Below, piece by piece: positions 522-28,919 of a DNA stretch of 32,000 bases. The notes beneath the pieces were generated by a model that was not told the DNA's origin, made no database searches, and saw nothing but the letters and a program-made list of their open reading frames with translations. Source of the stretch: an archaeon (GTDB lineage Archaea; Iainarchaeota; Iainarchaeia; Iainarchaeales; 1-14-0-10-31-34); NCBI GenBank assembly GCA_024277355.1, contig JAJRVL010000004.1, forward strand, positions 180,001-212,000. Direction: 5' to 3'. Numbering within the stretch: position 1 is the first letter of the stretch; each line of letters begins with the position of its first letter. The translations under genes were made by a program, and so were the position numbers.

Positions 522-591
522 TTCGCGATTCCGCTCGCGAGTGACGGTGCAAGACATTCGCTTACGCTCAGTCTAGCTGCTTCGCAAAAAA

Positions 592-7549: not shown

Positions 7550-7659
7550 AAAACTCTGTAATAAAAAGAATAACGTTAATTAAATAGTTTTTGCTTAAAA
7601 GAAATCAACTGCAATACACTTTAATAATTATTAAAAACTGTTTTAGACAGAAAGTATTA

Positions 7660-8226
7660 ATGGAATACGTTATTTTAGATACAGAAACCTGTCCTGTTAA
7701 ATTAGAAAAATATTTAGAATTAAATGAAACTGACAGAAAAAAATTATTAAATCCAATTGACTCAAGATTAGTTGCAATAGGATTAAGATATAATGCAAAA
7801 ACAGTAATCATTCAAGATAAAAACGAAAAAATAATGTTAGAAGAATTCTGGAATGAACTAAAGACAGCAAGAAAAAATAAATCAAAAATAGTCGGCTTTA
7901 ACATAAAAGATTTTGATTTACCTTTTTTAGTTACAAGAAGTTTTATTAATAATGTTAAAATTGAATCATTTATAATTAAAGATGTAATTGACTTAAGAGA
8001 AAAAGTTTCTGCTTTTCGTTATGGACAGACAAGAGGAAAACTAAAAGAATTCGGAGAATTCATGGGAATTGAATTACATGAAATGGATGGAAGTAAAGTT
8101 GCAGAAGAATGCATTAAAGGAAATTTTGAAAAACTAAAAGAATACTTAAAAAAAGATTTAGAAATAACAGAACAAATGCTAAAACGAATTGTTGAAACAA
8201 GAATAATTGAAATTGAACGCTGGTAA
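7660..8226 (+). CDS. RNase H-fold 3'-5' exonuclease of the PolB-exonuclease-like (DEDDy) type
   Basis: Starts at ATG 7660 (MEYVILDTET). Exo I is ILDTET, Exo II is GFNIKDFDLPFL, and Exo III is Y-x3-D in EYLKKDLE. The ORF-track TTG start at 7591 adds 23 non-conserved residues. Confidence 0.6.
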   Translation: MEYVILDTETCPVKLEKYLELNETDRKKLLNPIDSRLVAIGLRYNAKTVIIQDKNEKIMLEEFWNELKTARKNKSKIVGFNIKDFDLPFLVTRSFINNVKIESFIIKDVIDLREKVSAFRYGQTRGKLKEFGEFMGIELHEMDGSKVAEECIKGNFEKLKEYLKKDLEITEQMLKRIVETRIIEIERW

Positions 8227-8227
8227 A

Positions 8228-8577
8228 AGCCGGTTTCGCCCGGCTGGAACGATGCACTATCTTCACTTCGTTCGATAGAGCTTCCTTAATTAAATAAAAA
8301 ATAAGAATTAGGGGAAGACGCTTTGCTTTTGCAAAGCGCTCCAGGGATTTTGTTCTGCAAAGTTCGTTTTTGTTAAACCTTCAGGAAAAGCAGAGGAATT
8401 TATTCCTCAATTTTGATAAAACTTTTCCAAAAAGTTTTAGGCAAAGGAATTAAGTTTTTGGCAGCAAACTAATTCTCTTTTTGGTATTTTGGGAGTTTAG
8501 AAAGTTAAGAAAGAAAGTGCTGCTGTTAAACATAAGGGGGTCTTAGTGGTCTAACAGCAGACACTTGTGTGGGAGTA
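8228..8577. ncRNA. Hairpin-dense non-coding island, candidate structured RNA(s), class and strand unresolved
   Basis: A 350-nt gap with no credible ORF. Hairpins: AGCCGG-TTTCGC-CCGGCT (8228-8245); CGCTTTGC-TTTT-GCAAAGCG (8319-8338); GAGGA-ATTTAT-TCCTC (8393-8408); TAAAACTTTT-CCA-AAAAGTTTTA (8417-8439). A 14-bp stem AAGTGCTGCTGTTA / TAACAGCAG-A-CACTT spans 8515-8566. Confidence 0.35.
8409..8438 (+). promoter_or_regulatory. Second copy of the tRNA-Val upstream palindromic motif
   Basis: TTTTGATAAAACTTTT (8411-8426) is identical to 1405-1420. AAAAAGTTTT (8429-8438) is identical to 1425-1434. Both copies are followed by AGG. Confidence 0.35.
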
Positions 8578-22062: not shown

Positions 22063-23151
22063 TCACTTAATAAATTTCCATTGCTTTTTGGTTTTTCTTG
22101 CTTTATCTAATTTTTTCTGGAAGTCTTTCTGGAAAGAAATCATTAATTCCATTGCATTATCTTTATCCTGTCCGCATAAAAGATTTCCTTTTTTACAGTC
22201 ATCAAAAATTTTCTGAAGTAATTTGTCATCTTCAATTAAATGCTGTTTATACATTTCAAAAACCATGCATTTTTCAGGGAACCCGCCTAACTTTTTTTGT
22301 TCTTCAACTGTATTTCTTCCTCCAGTTAAAGCTTTCTTTATTTTTTTTCCTGCGTCATTTGGATTTTCAGGAATTGAAATAAAAGAATTAGGATTAGACT
22401 TAGACATTTTATGGTTTCCATCTAAAGAAGGAACAAATTTATGGTAAGTAGCTGAAGGCAGAAAGAAATTAAAATCTCTTTTAGTTCTTCTTACAATATC
22501 TCTTGCAAGTCTTATGTGAGGACTTTGGTCTATCCCGACAGGAATTACTCCAGGCATTTTTTCTATTGTCTGCGGAAACAAAATGTCTCCTGCCTGAGCT
22601 AAAGCTGAAAGAATTCTTGAAGGATGAACATTGCCGTAAATGCTTCTGAATTCATTCATTGTAATTTTTTGAGAAAACAAATAAGCTAAATTTTTTACTT
22701 CAGTGTTTTCTGACTGAAAATAAAAAACTGTTTTTTTTGGATTTAAACCTAAAGCAATATACGCAGGAATATAAAAATTTAAAGCTCTTTCTCTTGCTTC
22801 TTTCAAAGACAAACCTCTTGTTGCTGCTGCTTCTAAATCAGCAACCAACACAAAAGTTTTTGCATTTTGTTTCTGAAAATATTTAACCATTTCAATTACA
22901 GATTTAGTGCCAAAATGAATTCTTTCAGATGAAGGCATTATTCCAGTTAAACAATAAAACGGTTTTTTGTTTTGCATTGCGTCAGTTAATTCCTTTAAGC
23001 CCTGCCCTGCAAAAGTTATTCCTCTTTTCATTAAATAATTTGGTTCAGGAAATTTATCCAGAAAAGATTCCATTGACTCTAAACCAAAATCTTTTATTAA
23101 ACGAGAATAATCTTCAATTAATTCTGTTCCCCATGGATCAATCTTAGGCAT
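22063..23151 (-). CDS. trpS: Tryptophanyl-tRNA synthetase (archaeal/eukaryotic type)
   Basis: 362 aa with N-terminal DPWG...DYSRLIKDFG, GIDQSPHIRLARD and KMSKSNPNS. TyrRS is not fully excluded without a search. Confidence 0.75.
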   Translation of the reverse strand: MPKIDPWGTELIEDYSRLIKDFGLESMESFLDKFPEPNYLMKRGITFAGQGLKELTDAMQNKKPFYCLTGIMPSSERIHFGTKSVIEMVKYFQKQNAKTFVLVADLEAAATRGLSLKEARERALNFYIPAYIALGLNPKKTVFYFQSENTEVKNLAYLFSQKITMNEFRSIYGNVHPSRILSALAQAGDILFPQTIEKMPGVIPVGIDQSPHIRLARDIVRRTKRDFNFFLPSATYHKFVPSLDGNHKMSKSNPNSFISIPENPNDAGKKIKKALTGGRNTVEEQKKLGGFPEKCMVFEMYKQHLIEDDKLLQKIFDDCKKGNLLCGQDKDNAMELMISFQKDFQKKLDKARKTKKQWKFIK

Positions 23152-23218: not shown

Positions 23219-23734
23219 ATGATTTCAAATATCCTTTTAACAGATAAAATATTAATAAGAAAAAACAAAGACAAAAGTCTTTTCATCCAGAAATCTTTCG
23301 GCGAAAAAAACAAAACAGATTATGTTTTGGACTTAATTGAAGCATATTATTTACTGGAAAAAGGAAAACTTGAATTAGAAGACAAAAAAGGAAACAAAAT
23401 TGAATCAGATGAATTACTTAAAATTGGAGAAAAAAAAATTCAGGATTTCTATAAAAAATATTTAGTTTATTCTGATTTCAGAGAAAGAGGCTATGTTGTT
23501 AAAACTGGATTTAAGTTTGGATTTGATTTAAGAGTTTATCCTAAAGGAAAAAAACCCGGAGAAGAACACACTCAATGGGTTATTGCAGTCAAAGGACAGA
23601 ATGACAGAATTAATTTTATTGAATTAAGCAGAAAAGTCAGGTTAAGCGGAAACATTAAAACAAAATTATTGTTTGCAGTAGTTGACTCAGAAAATGACGT
23701 AAATTATTATGAAACCATCAGGGTAACCCCCTGA
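23219..23734 (+). CDS. endA: tRNA-splicing endonuclease, short homotetramer-type subunit
   Basis: 171 aa with EAYYLLEKGKLEL in the N-domain. The C-domain RGYVVKTGFKFGFDLRVYPKG...HTQWVIAV...KLLFAVVD has the Tyr/His/Lys layout of archaeal EndA. Confidence 0.8.
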   Translation: MISNILLTDKILIRKNKDKSLFIQKSFGEKNKTDYVLDLIEAYYLLEKGKLELEDKKGNKIESDELLKIGEKKIQDFYKKYLVYSDFRERGYVVKTGFKFGFDLRVYPKGKKPGEEHTQWVIAVKGQNDRINFIELSRKVRLSGNIKTKLLFAVVDSENDVNYYETIRVTP

Positions 23735-23763: not shown

Positions 23764-23886
23764 ATGAAACCTAAAAAAGAAGGATTTCCATTAAAAAAAA
23801 AGAAGAAAAAGAAAAAAATTAAAATTCCTTTTGAAGATTTAACAAGCCTTCCTTCAGAAAACGAATATGGAAATGAATTTCATTAA
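23764..23886 (+). CDS. Possible 40-aa lysine-rich peptide (weak)
   Basis: Hand translation gives MKPKKEGFPLKKKKKKKKIKIPFEDLTSLPSENEYGNEFH. Its stop overlaps the stop of the convergent ORF 23883..24530. It could be a chance ORF in A-rich DNA. Confidence 0.2.
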   Translation: MKPKKEGFPLKKKKKKKKIKIPFEDLTSLPSENEYGNEFH

Positions 23887-24530
23887 TATAAGTCAATTAA
23901 AGGCATGAAAATAAATTTTCCGTTTTTTACTCCTAATAACAAAATATTTGAAGGCATAATATCTATTTTTTCATAAACTTGTTTTGCTGCCTGTTCAAGT
24001 TGTTTTTTAGTAAATCCGTGTTTTTTGCTTAATTTTCTGAAAAATTGCCGGCCTTTTGTTGTAGGAGAAGCTTCAATAATATGGGGTTTAAGTTTAATAT
24101 CTCCTAAAATTTCATTTAAATTAGGTTTATTTGTTTTAGCCATTGCAACTAAATTATTTCCTAAATCATAAGCAATTGGTTCACGTAAAACAAAATTCAA
24201 ATCCTTTGGTATTCCTTTTTTTTTAATTAGTTCATTATAATTTCTAACTCTAAGCTGAATTTCTCTTAACTCTGTATTTGCTCCCCTCATGTCAGCATGC
24301 ATTTTTTTTATTACTAATTTTACTCCAGGATAATTCCTTGAAATATTCATTTGCCTTATTCTTCCTCCCCAAACATAAGTATCTTTTGACGGAACTTTAA
24401 AAATATTTTTTCTGGCAAAATCATTTTGTCTTGGATCAATGTTTTTCATTCTTCCTAAAGACTTATTAATTTTAGTTGAAACTTTTTTTAATCTTGAAAC
24501 AAGTTTTTTAGGCAAAGGTTTTACAGGCAT
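23883..24530 (-). CDS. Kinase-like paralog 1 (215 aa) with basic MPVKPLPKKLVSRLKK N-terminus
   Basis: Conserved blocks: GGRIRQMNISRNYPGVKLVIKKMH, REPIAYDLGNNLVAMAKTNKPNLNEILG, IDIMPSNILLLGVKNGKFIFMPLIDLY. Confidence 0.65.
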   Translation of the reverse strand: MPVKPLPKKLVSRLKKVSTKINKSLGRMKNIDPRQNDFARKNIFKVPSKDTYVWGGRIRQMNISRNYPGVKLVIKKMHADMRGANTELREIQLRVRNYNELIKKKGIPKDLNFVLREPIAYDLGNNLVAMAKTNKPNLNEILGDIKLKPHIIEASPTTKGRQFFRKLSKKHGFTKKQLEQAAKQVYEKIDIMPSNILLLGVKNGKFIFMPLIDLY

Positions 24531-24565
24531 AATAAAATTAGTTTTTTGTTATTTAAAATACTGGT

Positions 24566-25207
24566 TTAAAACAAGTCAATTAAAGGCATAAAAACAAGTT
24601 TTCCTTTATGCATTCCAACAAATTCCATTTGATCCGGAAGAATTCTAAGTAAATTGCATGCTTTGCCTAACTCTAAATAATATTTTACTCGAGGAATTTT
24701 ATTTTTCTTTAATGTTTCAGTTAAAGCTTTTCCTCTTAAACCTTTAATTTCCTGCATCGCAACAAGATTTTCTGCAAGCAAATGAACATCAGGCATTACC
24801 ACTTCATGATTTTTTGCTGAAACAGTTTTATTGTATTCCTGAACTTTTCCTTTTATTCTTTGAATTGTTTTTAATGCAGTTGAACTGTGAATTCTTTTCA
24901 AAATTACTCTTACTCCTGGAAAATTTCTTGAAACATTTAATTCTCTGACTCTTCCGCCGACAAATCTTGAATCAATTTTTCCAGGTTTAGTAAAAAAAGC
25001 TTTTAGTCCTTCTTTTTTTAATTCTTTAATAACATTTTTTTCTAAAATACTCATTTTTTTTCTATGATCAACATTTTCAAGTCTTTCAAAAGATTTAATT
25101 AAATCTTTTTTTCCATGCCTTTCAAGTCTTTTAGCTGTAGTTAATCTTAATCTGTTAACTAGTTTTGTCGGCAAAGGCTTGAAAAAAGGATTAAGTTTTT
25201 TTGGCAT
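24566..25207 (-). CDS. Kinase-like paralog 2 (213 aa), divergent copy lacking the D-x4-N element
   Basis: Blocks: KPLPTKLVNRLRL, GGRVRELNVSRNFPGVRVILKRIH, LVAMQEIKG, RILPDQMEFVGMHKGKLVFMPLIDLF. Confidence 0.65.
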   Translation of the reverse strand: MPKKLNPFFKPLPTKLVNRLRLTTAKRLERHGKKDLIKSFERLENVDHRKKMSILEKNVIKELKKEGLKAFFTKPGKIDSRFVGGRVRELNVSRNFPGVRVILKRIHSSTALKTIQRIKGKVQEYNKTVSAKNHEVVMPDVHLLAENLVAMQEIKGLRGKALTETLKKNKIPRVKYYLELGKACNLLRILPDQMEFVGMHKGKLVFMPLIDLF

Positions 25208-25239
25208 AAATACAATTGTAGTTTTCTTTCTTTAAAATA

Positions 25240-25893
25240 TTATTGCAAATCAACTAAAGGCATAAAAACAAACTTTCCGTTTTTTACGCCTAATAAAAGA
25301 ATGTTTCTGGTTGGAAAATCTATATATTTTGTTTTTGTTCTTCTGTAAAATCTTCCAAACGCTTCATTTAACTGTGTTTTAGTTACTCTGTGTTTTTTCT
25401 TTAATTTTCTGAAAAACTCCTGTCCTCTGATTGTTTTTCCATTAGAACCTAAAATTTCATCTAAATTAGGTTTATTTGTTTTAGCCATTGCAACTAAACC
25501 ATTGCCTAAAGCATAAGCAATAGGTTCACGTAAAACATAATTTTCTGGTTCAAAAGACTTGTTATGACTTTTAACTATTTTTTTTATTTCATTTATTTCT
25601 TTAATTGAATTAGGTGCAACATGAATTTTTTTTATTACTAACTTTATTCCAGGAAACTGTTTTGAAACATCCATCTCCCTTACTCTTCCTCCTGCACTGC
25701 TTATATTTTTTGGATTTAAAGCTAAAAGTTGTTTTATTTCAGGGTCATTTCTTCTATGGTCAATGTTTTTCATTGAACCTAAATTACCTGAAATTTCTTC
25801 TTTTCCTTGTTTAAATCTTTTTCTTTGTTCCCGTTTATCAGTAATTTTTTTTAATCTTGAAACAAGTTTTTTAGGCAGAGGTTTTGTCGGCAT
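25240..25893 (-). CDS. Kinase-like paralog 3 (217 aa from MPTKPLPKK)
   Basis: Start moved to ATG 25893 to match the paralog N-termini. Blocks: GGRVREMDVSKQFPGIKLVIKKIH, REPIAYALGNGLVAMAKTNKPNLDEILG, IDFPTRNILLLGVKNGKFVFMPLVDLQ. Confidence 0.65.
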   Translation of the reverse strand: MPTKPLPKKLVSRLKKITDKREQRKRFKQGKEEISGNLGSMKNIDHRRNDPEIKQLLALNPKNISSAGGRVREMDVSKQFPGIKLVIKKIHVAPNSIKEINEIKKIVKSHNKSFEPENYVLREPIAYALGNGLVAMAKTNKPNLDEILGSNGKTIRGQEFFRKLKKKHRVTKTQLNEAFGRFYRRTKTKYIDFPTRNILLLGVKNGKFVFMPLVDLQ

Positions 25894-25960
25894 AATATAA
25901 TTAGATTTTTGTTGTTTAAAAAACAAATGTTTTTGAATATTTTTTGGTTTTTTGTCTTAG

Positions 25961-26165
25961 AGAAAAAAAACAGAAGGAGGAAAAAGCACGCCTTAAAGAC
26001 GTGCTATCCCCAACTGAACGGGGTGAAGTCGTACAGTGATATTAACGGATAAACCGTTATCAGGAAGCAGTTTGTTCATTGACAGCAATGAGTATTTCTA
26101 AAGAGAAATCTTTTATCTGCTTCCTGAAAAAGGAAGAGAAACCTAAATTAAAATCTTCTTCCATT
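25961..26165. ncRNA. Hairpin-dense GC-enriched non-coding island, candidate structured RNA of unknown class
   Basis: Simple hairpins: AGCACG-N9-CGTGCT (25985-26005), CCCC-N8-GGGG (26008-26023), TAACGG-ATAAA-CCGTTA (26043-26059). An 11-bp helix TCAGGAAGCAG / CTGCTTCCTGA (26060-26070 / 26117-26127) encloses TCATTG-ACAG-CAATGA and ATTTCT-AAAG-AGAAAT. GGAAGAG...CTTCTTCC spans 26132-26162. No ORF. Confidence 0.4.
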
Positions 26166-26196
26166 AAAATCAATTATAATTAGACTTAAGTTTAAC

Positions 26197-26697
26197 TTAA
26201 ATATTTGGAAGCCTTACTGCCCGTGATATTCCTTTTTCAAGTAATGAATTAAATTCTTTTTGTGAAGGATGAAATTCATCTATGTTAACTTTATATTTTT
26301 CTTTAACAGAAGCTGAAACACTTGGGAAATATTTTTTTGCACTTTCAATTAATTGAAGATCAGCAACAATAATATCTGCACTTTTAAGCAGTTTAATTCT
26401 TGCATAAGTAGTTTCTTTTCCTATAGCTAAATTTAAAGCAACATTACTTAAAATAAAATTTTCAGAAAAACCTCTTTTTCTTAAAAATTCCCCAAACAAT
26501 TTCTGTGTTTTTTCACTTCTTGTATAAAGTGAACCAAAAAAAACTATTTTCAACGGACGTTTATTTTCTAATTTTTTTTTAATGTTTTTTAAAATGAATT
26601 TTTTTCTTTTAACTAAATCTGGTTTAGGTTTTTTCTTTGCTTTAGGAGAACGCAAACTATGCATTTTCCTTCTTCTTGCTTTTAAAGGAGTAGTCAT
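26197..26697 (-). CDS. Hypothetical protein with highly basic N-terminal extension
   Basis: 166-aa ORF. The N-terminus MTTPLKARRRKMHSLRSPKAKKKPKPDLVKRKKF is followed by a possible alpha/beta domain (LKIVFFGS...ADIIVADL). No firm family assignment. Confidence 0.5.
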   Translation of the reverse strand: MTTPLKARRRKMHSLRSPKAKKKPKPDLVKRKKFILKNIKKKLENKRPLKIVFFGSLYTRSEKTQKLFGEFLRKRGFSENFILSNVALNLAIGKETTYARIKLLKSADIIVADLQLIESAKKYFPSVSASVKEKYKVNIDEFHPSQKEFNSLLEKGISRAVRLPNI

Positions 26698-26912
26698 AAA
26701 ATCACAAATAAAATAAACATGTTTTTCTTTATTTAAAATGTTTTCTGAAAACCCTGCGTAAAAAAAAAATTAAGTTTTTACTTTTTATTTAGCCAAAAGC
26801 GTTTTTGATGCAACTTTTTCTGAAAAAATTGTAATTGCAATGCCTTTAAAAACTTTTTTTGAGAAAAAATAATAATCTTAATACCAAAATTGAATCCAAA
26901 GGAGTTGAAGAA

Positions 26913-28919
26913 ATGGAACTAGTTTTTTATTCTATTATTGCAGGAATAATTGCATTGCTTTATACTGTAATATTAAACAACAAAATTAATTCTCATGGAG
27001 TCGGAAACGACAAAATGAAAGAAATAAGTTTAGCAATAAGAGAAGGAGCAATGGCTTTTCTTAAAAGAGAATATAAAAGTTTAGCATTTTTTATTGCAAT
27101 TGTATTTATTATATTAACAATTTTAAGCCAGGTTTATCCTCAGGCAATGAACTTTTTTGTAGGAGTATCTTTTATTGTTGGTGCTTTATGTTCAGCTTTA
27201 GCCGGATGGTTAGGCATGAGTACAGCAACAAACTCTAATGTTAGAACTACTCAGGCAGCAACAACTTCAATGAGTGAAGCATTAAAAATTGCTTTTTCTT
27301 CAGGAGCCGTAATGGGTTTAAGTGTAGTAGGATTAGGAATTTTAGGAATAAGTGTATTATATTACATTTACTCTGGAATAATGAATTTTCCAAATCCAAC
27401 TGTTTTATTATTTGGATTTAGTTTTGGTGCTTCAAGCATTGCATTATTTGCAAGAGTTGGAGGCGGAATTTACACTAAAGCTGCAGATGTAGGAGCAGAT
27501 TTAGTTGGAAAAGTTGAAGCAGGAATTCCAGAAGACGATCCAAGAAATCCAGCAGTAATAGCAGACAATGTAGGAGACAATGTAGGAGATGTTGCCGGAA
27601 TGGGAGCAGACTTATTTGAAAGTTATGTTGGAAGTATTATTGCTTCAATGGCTTTAGGTTTAATTGCATTTGAAGTAATTGGAATGGAATTTCCTTTAGT
27701 TTTAGCAGCAGCAGGAATACTTGCTTCAATTATTGGAATAGTTTATGTTAATTTAATGAGCACAGGTTCAGGAGTTCATTCAGCTTTAAGAAACGGAACT
27801 CTTGTTGCAGCAGGAATAATGACTGTTTTTGCTTTTTTGTTAACAAACTATTTTGGGTTGCCAATTGAAATATTTTATTCAATGATAATTGGATTAATTG
27901 TAGGGTTATTAATTGGTTTTTTAACTGAATATTACACTGCACATGAACACAAACCAACACAAAAAGTAAGCCAGTCATCTGAAACAGGAGCAGCAACAAA
28001 TATTATTGCAGGATTATCTTTAGGTTATGTTTCAACTGCCTTGCCTGTATTAGTTTTAGTAATAGGAATATATTTTGCTTATGCTTTTGGAGGCTTATAT
28101 GGAATTGGAATTGCCGCAGTTGGAATGCTTTCAACTTTAGGAATAACTTTAGCTGTAGATGCATATGGCCCAGTAGCAGACAACGCAGGTGGAATAGCAG
28201 AAATGGCAGGTTTAGATAAAAAAGTAAGAGAAGTAACTGATTCATTAGATGCAGCAGGAAACACAACTGCAGCAATAGGAAAAGGATTTGCAATTGGTTC
28301 AGCTGCATTAACTGCTTTAGCTTTTTTTGCAACTTTTAGCCAGACAGCAGATTTAACTGTAATAAACATTTTAGATACAAATGTAATGGTTGGATTATTG
28401 CTTGGAGCAATGCTTCCGTTTTTGTTTAGTTCTTTTGCAATGACTGCAGTAGGAGAAGCAGCAGAAGCAATGATAGCAGAAGTAAGAAGACAATTCAAAG
28501 AAATAAAAGGATTAATGGAAGGAAAAGCAAAACCAGACTATAAAAGATGCGTTGAAATTTCAACTGATGCAGCATTAAAAAAAATGGTTATGCCTGGCTT
28601 ACTAGCTATTTTATCACCTATTGTTGTTGGCTTAATTTTAGGGCCAGAAGGATTAGGCGGATTATTAGCTGGCGCATTAGTGTCAGGAGTAATGATGGCA
28701 ATAATGATGGCTAATGCAGGCGGAGCATGGGATAACGCAAAAAAATACATTGAATTAGGACATCATGGAGGTAAAGGTTCTCCTGCACATAAAGCAGCAG
28801 TAACAGGAGACACAGTAGGAGACCCATTTAAAGATACAGCAGGACCTTCATTAAACATTCTAATAAAATTAATGAGCATTACAGCATTAATTTTTGCTTC
28901 AATTTTAGTGGTTTTATAA
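26913..28919 (+). CDS. hppA: Membrane-bound K+-insensitive/sensitive H+(Na+)-translocating pyrophosphatase
   Basis: Start taken at ATG 26913 (MELVFYSII), preceded by GGAG. Motifs: [68 protein letters not shown]. There are about 16 TM segments. Confidence 0.9.

Follow-up and report, generated by a model that had tools for sequence, protein, structure and literature searches.

The island of hairpins at positions 25961–26165 of the 32,000-nucleotide (nt) stretch of archaeal DNA analysed here (the window, G000:C2:180001-212000) is a composite of two unrelated things and not a single folded non-coding RNA (ncRNA). In our reading, which we hold to be highly probable, it consists of a small protein gene on the minus strand, with a stem in its mRNA that is under selection, followed by dispersed hairpin repeats and a terminator-like tract. 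The strand of this unit, the ends of its transcript and its translation are deduced from comparative evidence. The genome of origin (G000) measures 1.13 Mb in 11 contigs and has a G+C content of about 27%; the island is flanked there by two minus-strand open reading frames (ORFs), 25240–25926 and 26197–26697 (166 amino acids, aa). Read in the direction of the minus strand, the unit would be made up of the following features:

26196–26224, minus strand: block resembling a B recognition element and TATA box (BRE/TATA), ..TTCCAAA-N-TTTAAG, 30–60 nt upstream of the ATG
26060–26164, minus strand: unannotated small ORF of 34 aa plus stop; ATG at 26162–26164, TGA at 26060–26062
26117–26127, minus strand: 5' arm of the stem, UCAGGAAGCAG; codons Phe-Arg-Lys-Gln, residues 12–15
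26060–26070, minus strand: 3' arm of the stem, CUGCUUCCUGA; last codons Thr-Ala-Ser and the stop
26022–26059, minus strand: partly decayed copy of a hairpin/pseudoknot module known from tRNA edges, matched by a covariance model; first hairpin intact, pseudoknot partner lost
25985–26005, minus strand: GC hairpin AGCACG..CGUGCU, a second repeated hairpin type, terminator-like in a scan
25961–25984, minus strand: U-rich tract UUUUUCCUCCUUCUGUUUUUUUU, from the sequence and the terminator scan; beyond it come the promoter and start of another minus-strand gene

Coding evidence for the small ORF

We searched 40 related genomes with the DNA of the island and found similarity confined to 26059–26151, in four genomes of the same genus, at 78–81% identity; the left 100 nt of the island is not conserved in relatives. 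A search with a protein profile recovered the small ORF in five of the five other genomes of the genus (G001–G005; E 1e-14 to 1e-21), and a scan of metagenome contigs supplied four further distinct loci. Beyond the genus, the profile search gave only chance-level matches, apart from a doubtful copy in G007, which belongs to a different genus of the family (E 0.0075, in a context that is only partly syntenic). A second profile match in the own genome (C7:28439-28480, E 0.03), at first sight a paralog beside another module, lies antisense to the 3' end of the 23S rRNA and was discarded as a chance match.

The frame from ATG to stop is open in ten of ten relatives, over 27–34 codons, and the other two frames carry between one and five stops in every sequence. 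Within the ungapped core of 23 codons, 12 columns vary at codon position 1, 11 at position 2 and 20 at position 3, and the pairwise ratio of non-synonymous to synonymous divergence (pN/pS) lies between 0.16 and 0.9 in all pairs except one (1.02). Invariant residues are encoded by synonymous codons: Ala by GCT, GCA or GCG, Val by GTC, GTT or GTA, Phe by TTC or TTT, Glu by GAA or GAG, and Pro by CCA, CCG or CCC. We also took five pairs of sequences, scattered over each at random as many substitutions as were observed, and compared the resulting amino acid similarity with the real one. In the ORF frame, each of the five pairs gave p ≤ 0.0016 (combined p ∼2e-12), against p values of 0.88 and 0.31 in the other two frames. 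The core F-R-K-Q-[VIL]-K-x-F-x-x-E-x-x-x-A-V-x-E-x-x-A-S-stop is kept with minor departures and most copies share an N-terminal [SL]DF motif, the N-terminal region being variable in length and sequence in all relatives. On this comparative signature, we regard 26060–26164 on the minus strand as a real small protein gene.

Comparison of the 60 nt upstream of the ORF revealed a block, CCGGCA..GGTTTCCAAAGnTTTAAA, that is common to ten of ten loci at a fixed distance of 37–41 nt from the ATG. This block resembles an archaeal BRE/TATA promoter with a very short leader, and the architecture of archaeal promoters suggests that it acts as one. In the own genome, the 166-aa ORF (26197–26697) runs into this block with its last codons.

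AlphaFold2, run on an alignment of 11 sequences, folds residues 2–33 into one helix with a mean predicted local distance difference test score (pLDDT) of 81.5; the 34-aa product is thus predicted to be a single amphipathic α-helix. The grand average of hydropathy (GRAVY) is −0.35 to 0.05 across the family (about −0.1 for the own peptide) and the net charge is mostly negative; the helix is amphipathic and not membrane-like. The 34-aa protein has no match in Pfam or NCBIfam. An exhaustive HMMER search of 1.84 billion representative proteins returned only four true clusters, all unnamed, and the exact protein of the own genome is absent from a collection of 15 billion proteins, which means that no gene caller reported it. 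The literature yielded no description of the small protein or of the hairpin repeat. As far as these searches extend, the family appears to be lineage-specific, being confined to one DPANN genus and a few metagenome contigs.

The mRNA stem and the fold of the island

The conserved stem spans 10–11 bp and pairs the codons TTC-AGG-AAG-CAG of the 5' arm with (A)CT-GCT-TCC-TGA of the 3' arm. Conservation of helices was counted as paired cells over 11 homologous loci, with slid alignments as controls; in these terms 89% of the cells of the stem are paired, with three changes on both sides. Three observations bear on the silent positions of the arms. The codons used there have frequencies of 0.11 (TTC), 0.12 (AGG), 0.07 (AAG), 0.40, 0.33 and 0.026 (TCC), and 0.25 for the TGA stop, in a reference of 727 long ORFs of the own genome; given the amino acids and the codon usage of the genome, the joint probability of these synonymous choices is 8e-7. 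In the nine sequences with a preserved stem, two of seven third positions are variable inside it, versus 15 of 17 outside it (p 0.0086). Finally, the metagenome locus L059 has TTT in place of TTC and TAA in place of TGA, two silent changes that preserve the pairing by turning C:G into U:A. Rare codons, nearly frozen silent sites and this compensation together imply that the stem is selected on top of the coding sequence. Our comparison thus indicates selection, across most of the genus, for an mRNA stem that ties the stop codon to the middle of the ORF.

The 10-mer of the stem, CAGGAAGCAG/CTGCTTCCTG, occurs 17 times in the genome, among the top 0.25% of words of the same composition (mean 0.85, maximum 26). 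We rejected it as a motif: its other copies lie in unrelated contexts and share no flanks, as expected of a common word.

The original prediction had depicted the island as a stack of perfect hairpins, richer in G+C than its surroundings, with a three-way junction closed by an 11-bp helix. All seven helices are indeed present, and the folds beat shuffled sequences on both strands: the minimum free energy (MFE), compared with that of 200 dinucleotide shuffles per strand, gave z −4.96 for the plus strand and −6.27 for the minus strand, and 0 of 200 shuffles equalled the island on either. The two halves of the minus strand are each significant alone (25975–26062, z −4.2; 26057–26131, z −4.9). The enrichment in G+C is real (0.34 versus 0.22–0.30 in the flanks) but only modest. 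The helices are listed below; the first five were read in the sequence and in the MFE fold.

25985–25990 / 26000–26005: helix AGCACG/CGTGCT
26008–26011 / 26020–26023: helix CCCC/GGGG
26043–26048 / 26054–26059: helix TAACGG/CCGTTA
26060–26070 / 26117–26127: 11-bp helix enclosing two tetraloop hairpins of 6–7 bp
26132–26139 / 26154–26162: helix GGAAGAGA/TCTTCTTCC
26132–26162, minus strand: hairpin GGAAGAAGA../..UCUCUUCC, seen in folds, in the variable N-terminal coding part and specific to the own genome
26075–26110, minus strand: the two inner tetraloop hairpins of the three-way junction, inside the coding sequence and specific to the own genome

Across the 11 loci, the closing helix of the junction (helix 1) is paired in 89% of cells and the inner helices 2 and 3 in 71% and 64%, the interior folding differently in each relative. 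The covariation score of the three-helix structure (0.140) does not exceed that of a control slid by +1 (0.155). As the inner helices are not kept across relatives, the three-way junction is particular to the own genome and only its closing helix is conserved. A conserved three-way-junction ncRNA was therefore rejected: alignment left the inner hairpins with no covariation beyond that of slid controls. The proposal that the island is an independent ncRNA is likewise not supported, its conserved core being protein-coding on the minus strand and its inner hairpins not being conserved.

Known classes of structured RNA were considered as well. The island gave no match in Rfam at gathering thresholds, and the best matches at E ≤ 10 reach at most 17 bits where the thresholds are at least 42. 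The RNAs of the signal recognition particle (SRP) and of RNase P, considered in view of the reduced archaeal genome, are both found elsewhere in it. A tRNA or tRNA-like gene was dismissed, since neither ARAGORN nor the Rfam tRNA model finds a cloverleaf in the locus and the interior fold differs between species. For C/D-box and H/ACA RNAs, no fitting order of boxes was found by eye on either strand, nor any support in Rfam. Lastly, a bulge-helix-bulge (BHB) substrate of archaeal splicing or circularisation would need two 3-nt bulges with a 4-bp helix between them, which are absent: the closing helix consists of 11 uninterrupted Watson–Crick pairs.

The hairpin module behind the stop codon

About 14 of the 42 tRNA genes of the genome carry, directly after the discriminator base, a trailer that contains a hairpin and a loop-to-linker pseudoknot. 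A covariance model of this module, trained on 14 tRNA trailers only, has 44 matches in the genome. Of these, about 27 belong to tRNA genes, lying directly against the 3' end in the same orientation, against the 5' end in inverted orientation or within introns. Within the family, hairpin and pseudoknot covary: 86% of cells are paired and nine of ten pairs have changed on both sides, a score that 0 of 500 shuffles reach and that lies far above those of slid controls. For the pseudoknot alone, 80% of cells are paired and three of four pairs are compensatory.

The same trailer-only model matches the island at 26022–26059, on the minus strand only, with a score of 22.9 bits and E values of 0.017 (genome) and 4.9e-4 (window), compared with 29–42 bits for most tRNA copies. 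The island copy aligns to the trailers of tRNA-Met and tRNA-Gly(CCC) from the first hairpin through the linker into the start of the second, and its 6-bp hairpin UAACGG/CCGUUA begins at the base right after the stop codon. Its loop has 5 nt and none of the aligned pseudoknot positions (columns 9–12 / 22–25) pair, for which reasons we classify it as a decayed copy.

What follows the stop codon differs from one relative to the next. L059 has a module of the tRNA-Ser(GCU)-trailer type after the stop codon, G001 and L062 have one of the tRNA-Val(GAC) type, and L058 has a cluster of the Asn-intron type 15 nt downstream. No module stands behind the stop codon in G002, G003, G005 and L060, and none is recognisable by eye in G004. 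The presence of different subtypes, or of none, shows the tail to be an insertion-prone add-on and not a conserved RNA machine. The insert of G001 and L062 is about 50 nt long and is flanked by a direct repeat of 8–9 bp, GCTT(C/T)CTGA, which regenerates the last codons of the ORF; the corresponding site is empty in G003, the closest relative of these two (L062:958-1020 and L057:849-910 were compared with the empty L056). The pattern at this site resembles that of recurrent insertion accompanied by a short duplication of the target, and is a hint of transposition of the module at the level of DNA.

Beyond the module, the unit would end at a second hairpin and the U-rich tract. Between 25800 and 26300, a terminator scan reported one site (shuffle mean 0.2), namely the minus-strand hairpin 26005–25985 and its tail, which bears out the earlier view of this hairpin and U tract as terminator-like. 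Hairpins of the form GCACG-N-CGTGC occur only four times genome-wide, the other three being in the tRNA-Asn intron or upstream of two tRNA genes. In the relatives, too, oligo-U tracts occur a short way past the ORF alone or past ORF plus module. Transcription is thus likely to stop at the U-rich tract.

The module also occurs at other sites in the window and elsewhere in the genome. At 523–561 (plus strand, 37 bits), a copy stands directly after tRNA-Leu(UAG) (437–522). At 8228–8266 (plus strand, 34.6 bits), another stands 2 nt past the stop of ORF 7588–8226, a 212-aa gene resembling a PolB exonuclease or RNase H. As this copy lies behind an exonuclease-like protein gene, the module is not confined to genes for stable RNAs. 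At C7:28387-28446 (L082), the 3' end of the 23S rRNA (LSU_rRNA_archaea, 106 bits) has a module copy (31 bits) within about 20 nt downstream of it. Inverted modules are found 1–4 nt from the 5' ends of tRNA-Ala(UGC), Gly(UCC), Glu(CUC) and Leu(CAG) (G000 C7:31862, C11:68325, C1:8595 and C2:349263), so that some tRNAs have modules of opposite orientation on their two sides, which could pair with each other. ARAGORN further predicts very long introns of 43–149 nt in at least 16 tRNA genes; one call with a 403-nt intron is doubtful and that of tRNA-Ser(aga) looks unreliable. GC-rich hairpins of the same kind make up the tRNA-Asn intron. A second hairpin repeat, AT-rich and of the form AAACCTTTTT-loop-AAAAAGGTTT with ATCAAAAA after it, recurs beside tRNA genes: it lies behind tRNA-His, Ser(AGA), Leu(UAA), Ala(UGC) and Arg(UCU), and also within the intron of tRNA-Gly(CCC).

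Readings of the island and related systems

In the reading that we prefer, transcription of a short minus-strand unit would be directed by the BRE/TATA block some 30–40 nt before the ATG, and an ORF of 27–34 codons would be translated into a soluble, slightly acidic amphipathic helix. The stem, by pairing codons 12–15 with the last three codons and the stop, would protect the 3' end of a very short mRNA (about 120–200 nt) from 3'-to-5' decay or trimming, and may slow ribosomes at termination. The 3' untranslated tail would then run through the decayed hairpin/pseudoknot module and the GCACG-type hairpin to the U tract, where transcription would end. Several points weigh against this interpretation. 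The protein has no homologue of known function and was not called as a gene in its own genome. With a pN/pS that is only moderately low in so tiny an ORF, constraint on the protein is not strong, and the five pairs used in the randomisation are phylogenetically not fully independent. The stem is weaker in G004 and in the doubtful G007 copy, by one A:U replacement each, and hence is not indispensable; its conservation is mainly invariance plus three single both-sided changes, and when the three helices are scored together for covariation, the +1 slid control does about as well. Moreover, the module otherwise favours the ends of stable-RNA genes, which leaves room for a stem-loop that is handled like a stable RNA.

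This last point leads to the alternative of a pre-tRNA mimic, in which the 11-bp stem and the trailer module would imitate an acceptor end and be cut after the stop codon by RNase Z or by a module-removing enzyme, the product being a tiny mRNA, or an RNA with two functions, with a protected helix at its end. The geometry is suggestive, as the module starts 0–2 nt past the helix just as it starts 0–2 nt past the discriminator base of a tRNA; at least three module subtypes occupy this position in different lineages, and among the copies outside tRNA genes the 11-bp flanking helix of the island lies above the 95th percentile of random sites. Yet helix adjacency does not set the non-tRNA copies as a whole apart from random positions (mean 6.8 bp; AT-rich sites), another module abuts an ordinary protein gene whose end forms no helix, the stem stands without a module in five or six relatives, and the copy in the island itself lacks the pseudoknot. 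We therefore regard the mimic as improbable. There is likewise only a slim chance that the tRNA-maturation machinery trims a tiny mRNA at its stop, or that a mobile module homes to the 3' edge of long helices; such homing would explain the three or more independent arrivals of module subtypes at the site. If it were true, a pre-tRNA-like end would connect the processing of tRNAs with the maturation of mRNA and with a mobile structured repeat in DPANN archaea. It is very unlikely that the core is instead a non-coding stable RNA of about 70 nt closed by the stem, with the open frame as a by-product. Such an RNA would suit the pattern of conservation, which is highest in the nucleotides of the stem arms, the preference of the module family for stable-RNA gene ends (tRNAs and the 23S rRNA 3' end) and the lack of known relatives of the protein; its interior structure, however, is not conserved, it matches no Rfam family or tRNA, the coding signal is strong and frame-specific (the other frames having 1–5 stops), and the [SL]DF motif, the ATG and the promoter spacing are conserved outside the stem.

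The strand, too, can be questioned: the functional RNA could be read from the plus strand, either as a small RNA starting from the TATA-like word at 25929 or as an antisense regulator of the small ORF such as those of type I toxin–antitoxin systems. The plus strand does fold well (z −4.96), an AT-rich word like that upstream of tRNA-Val lies about 31 nt before 25960, and small ORFs in highly folded mRNAs are generally typical of type I toxins. We rate this reading lower still, since the minus strand folds better and has the U tract, the module fits its model on the minus strand only, the conserved promoter block and the ORF lie on that strand, and the sequence left of 26059 is not conserved in relatives; the peptide, acidic, amphipathic and with a GRAVY of about −0.1, is no hydrophobic membrane toxin. 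The word at 25929 shares with the region upstream of tRNA-Val only the AT-rich string GTTTTTGA-TA. As for the neighbouring genes, the order in all confirmed loci is membrane H+-pyrophosphatase (PPase; 26859–28919 in the window), the 166-aa gene where present, the small ORF, zero to three paralogs of the downstream ORF, endA (tRNA-splicing endonuclease, 23219–23734) and a class I Trp/Tyr-tRNA synthetase gene (termed TrpRS, 22063–23151), endA and TrpRS being convergent with the small ORF. This synteny excludes both the leader of the paralog cluster and a mere 3' untranslated region (UTR) of the 166-aa gene, the two other roles once envisaged for the island. A leader or attenuator of the cluster (25240–25926 and beyond), with the small ORF as leader peptide, is barely credible: the own genome, G002 and L062 do have a same-strand paralog of the 228-aa gene after the small ORF, but in G001, G003, G004, G005, L058, L059 and L060 the convergent endA follows, with no same-strand paralog, and a U-tract terminator and a separate TATA-like box stand between the ORF and the next gene. 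Nor is the island a long 3' UTR of 26197–26697, as the element keeps its own BRE/TATA and ATG and is also present where relatives have no 166-aa gene; the 3' UTR is confined to the left 100 nt of the island and belongs to the small ORF. To the role of the peptide itself synteny gives no clue, because the genomes are close relatives (endA is 84–92% identical among those compared).

Small proteins (<50 aa) missed by gene callers, and RNA structure that overlaps coding sequence, are familiar from archaea and bacteria. The present case resembles them in that a short conserved ORF with its own promoter is revealed by a comparative codon signature alone, and in that a base-paired segment constrains synonymous sites; it differs in that the stem joins the middle of the ORF to the stop codon and not the start region. 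Type I toxin mRNAs share with it an ORF of about 30 codons, a heavily folded mRNA and a long-range stem, whereas the peptide here is acidic and amphipathic, the start region lies outside the stem and the locus is syntenic and single-copy. We rejected the assignment to that class on the GRAVY of −0.35 to 0.05, the mostly negative charge and the lack of a hydrophobic membrane helix. Archaea terminate transcription intrinsically at oligo-U tracts and need no preceding hairpin. A U5–U8 tract is likewise the predicted end of the unit, here and in relatives, although the hairpin before it is here a copy of a repeat. REP/BIME-type elements of bacteria and the palindromic elements of Rickettsia are short dispersed palindromes that accumulate after stop codons and can stabilise the upstream mRNA. 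Our module is similarly a short dispersed palindromic unit found just after stop codons and in other tolerated places, and is set apart by its archaeal host, its bias towards tRNA edges and introns and its covarying pseudoknot. Like the modules at tRNA and rRNA ends, the island copy stands in the same orientation right against a gene's 3' end, but this gene is protein-coding, and the copy is low-scoring and has lost its loop-to-linker pseudoknot.

This analysis removes a false candidate for a new ncRNA, and puts in its place what we take to be a small protein family missed by annotation in one genus of tiny DPANN archaea. It offers a clean small example of selection on RNA structure inside an ORF, with rare codons, frozen silent sites and a doubly silent compensation. 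The island holds no new kind of system; what the locus adds is the occurrence and turnover of the module behind a protein gene. That a repeat of tRNA edges also lands behind protein genes, and has come repeatedly to one and the same site in sister lineages, once with a direct repeat of 8–9 bp, bears on how such repeats move.

The genes next to the island offer some minor observations. The paralogs (228, 213 and 215 aa) and the 166-aa ORF have no usable match in Pfam, NCBIfam or the PDB, and the label 'kinase-like' that the original prediction gave to the paralogs finds no support in these tools other than a single match of E 0.052. The paralog family (213–228 aa) has three copies at 23883–25926 of the window, with L025 and L062 as the compared loci, and its copy number between endA and the small ORF ranges from zero to three among sister genomes. 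The 166-aa gene has matches only in G001 and L062, at 29–36% identity.

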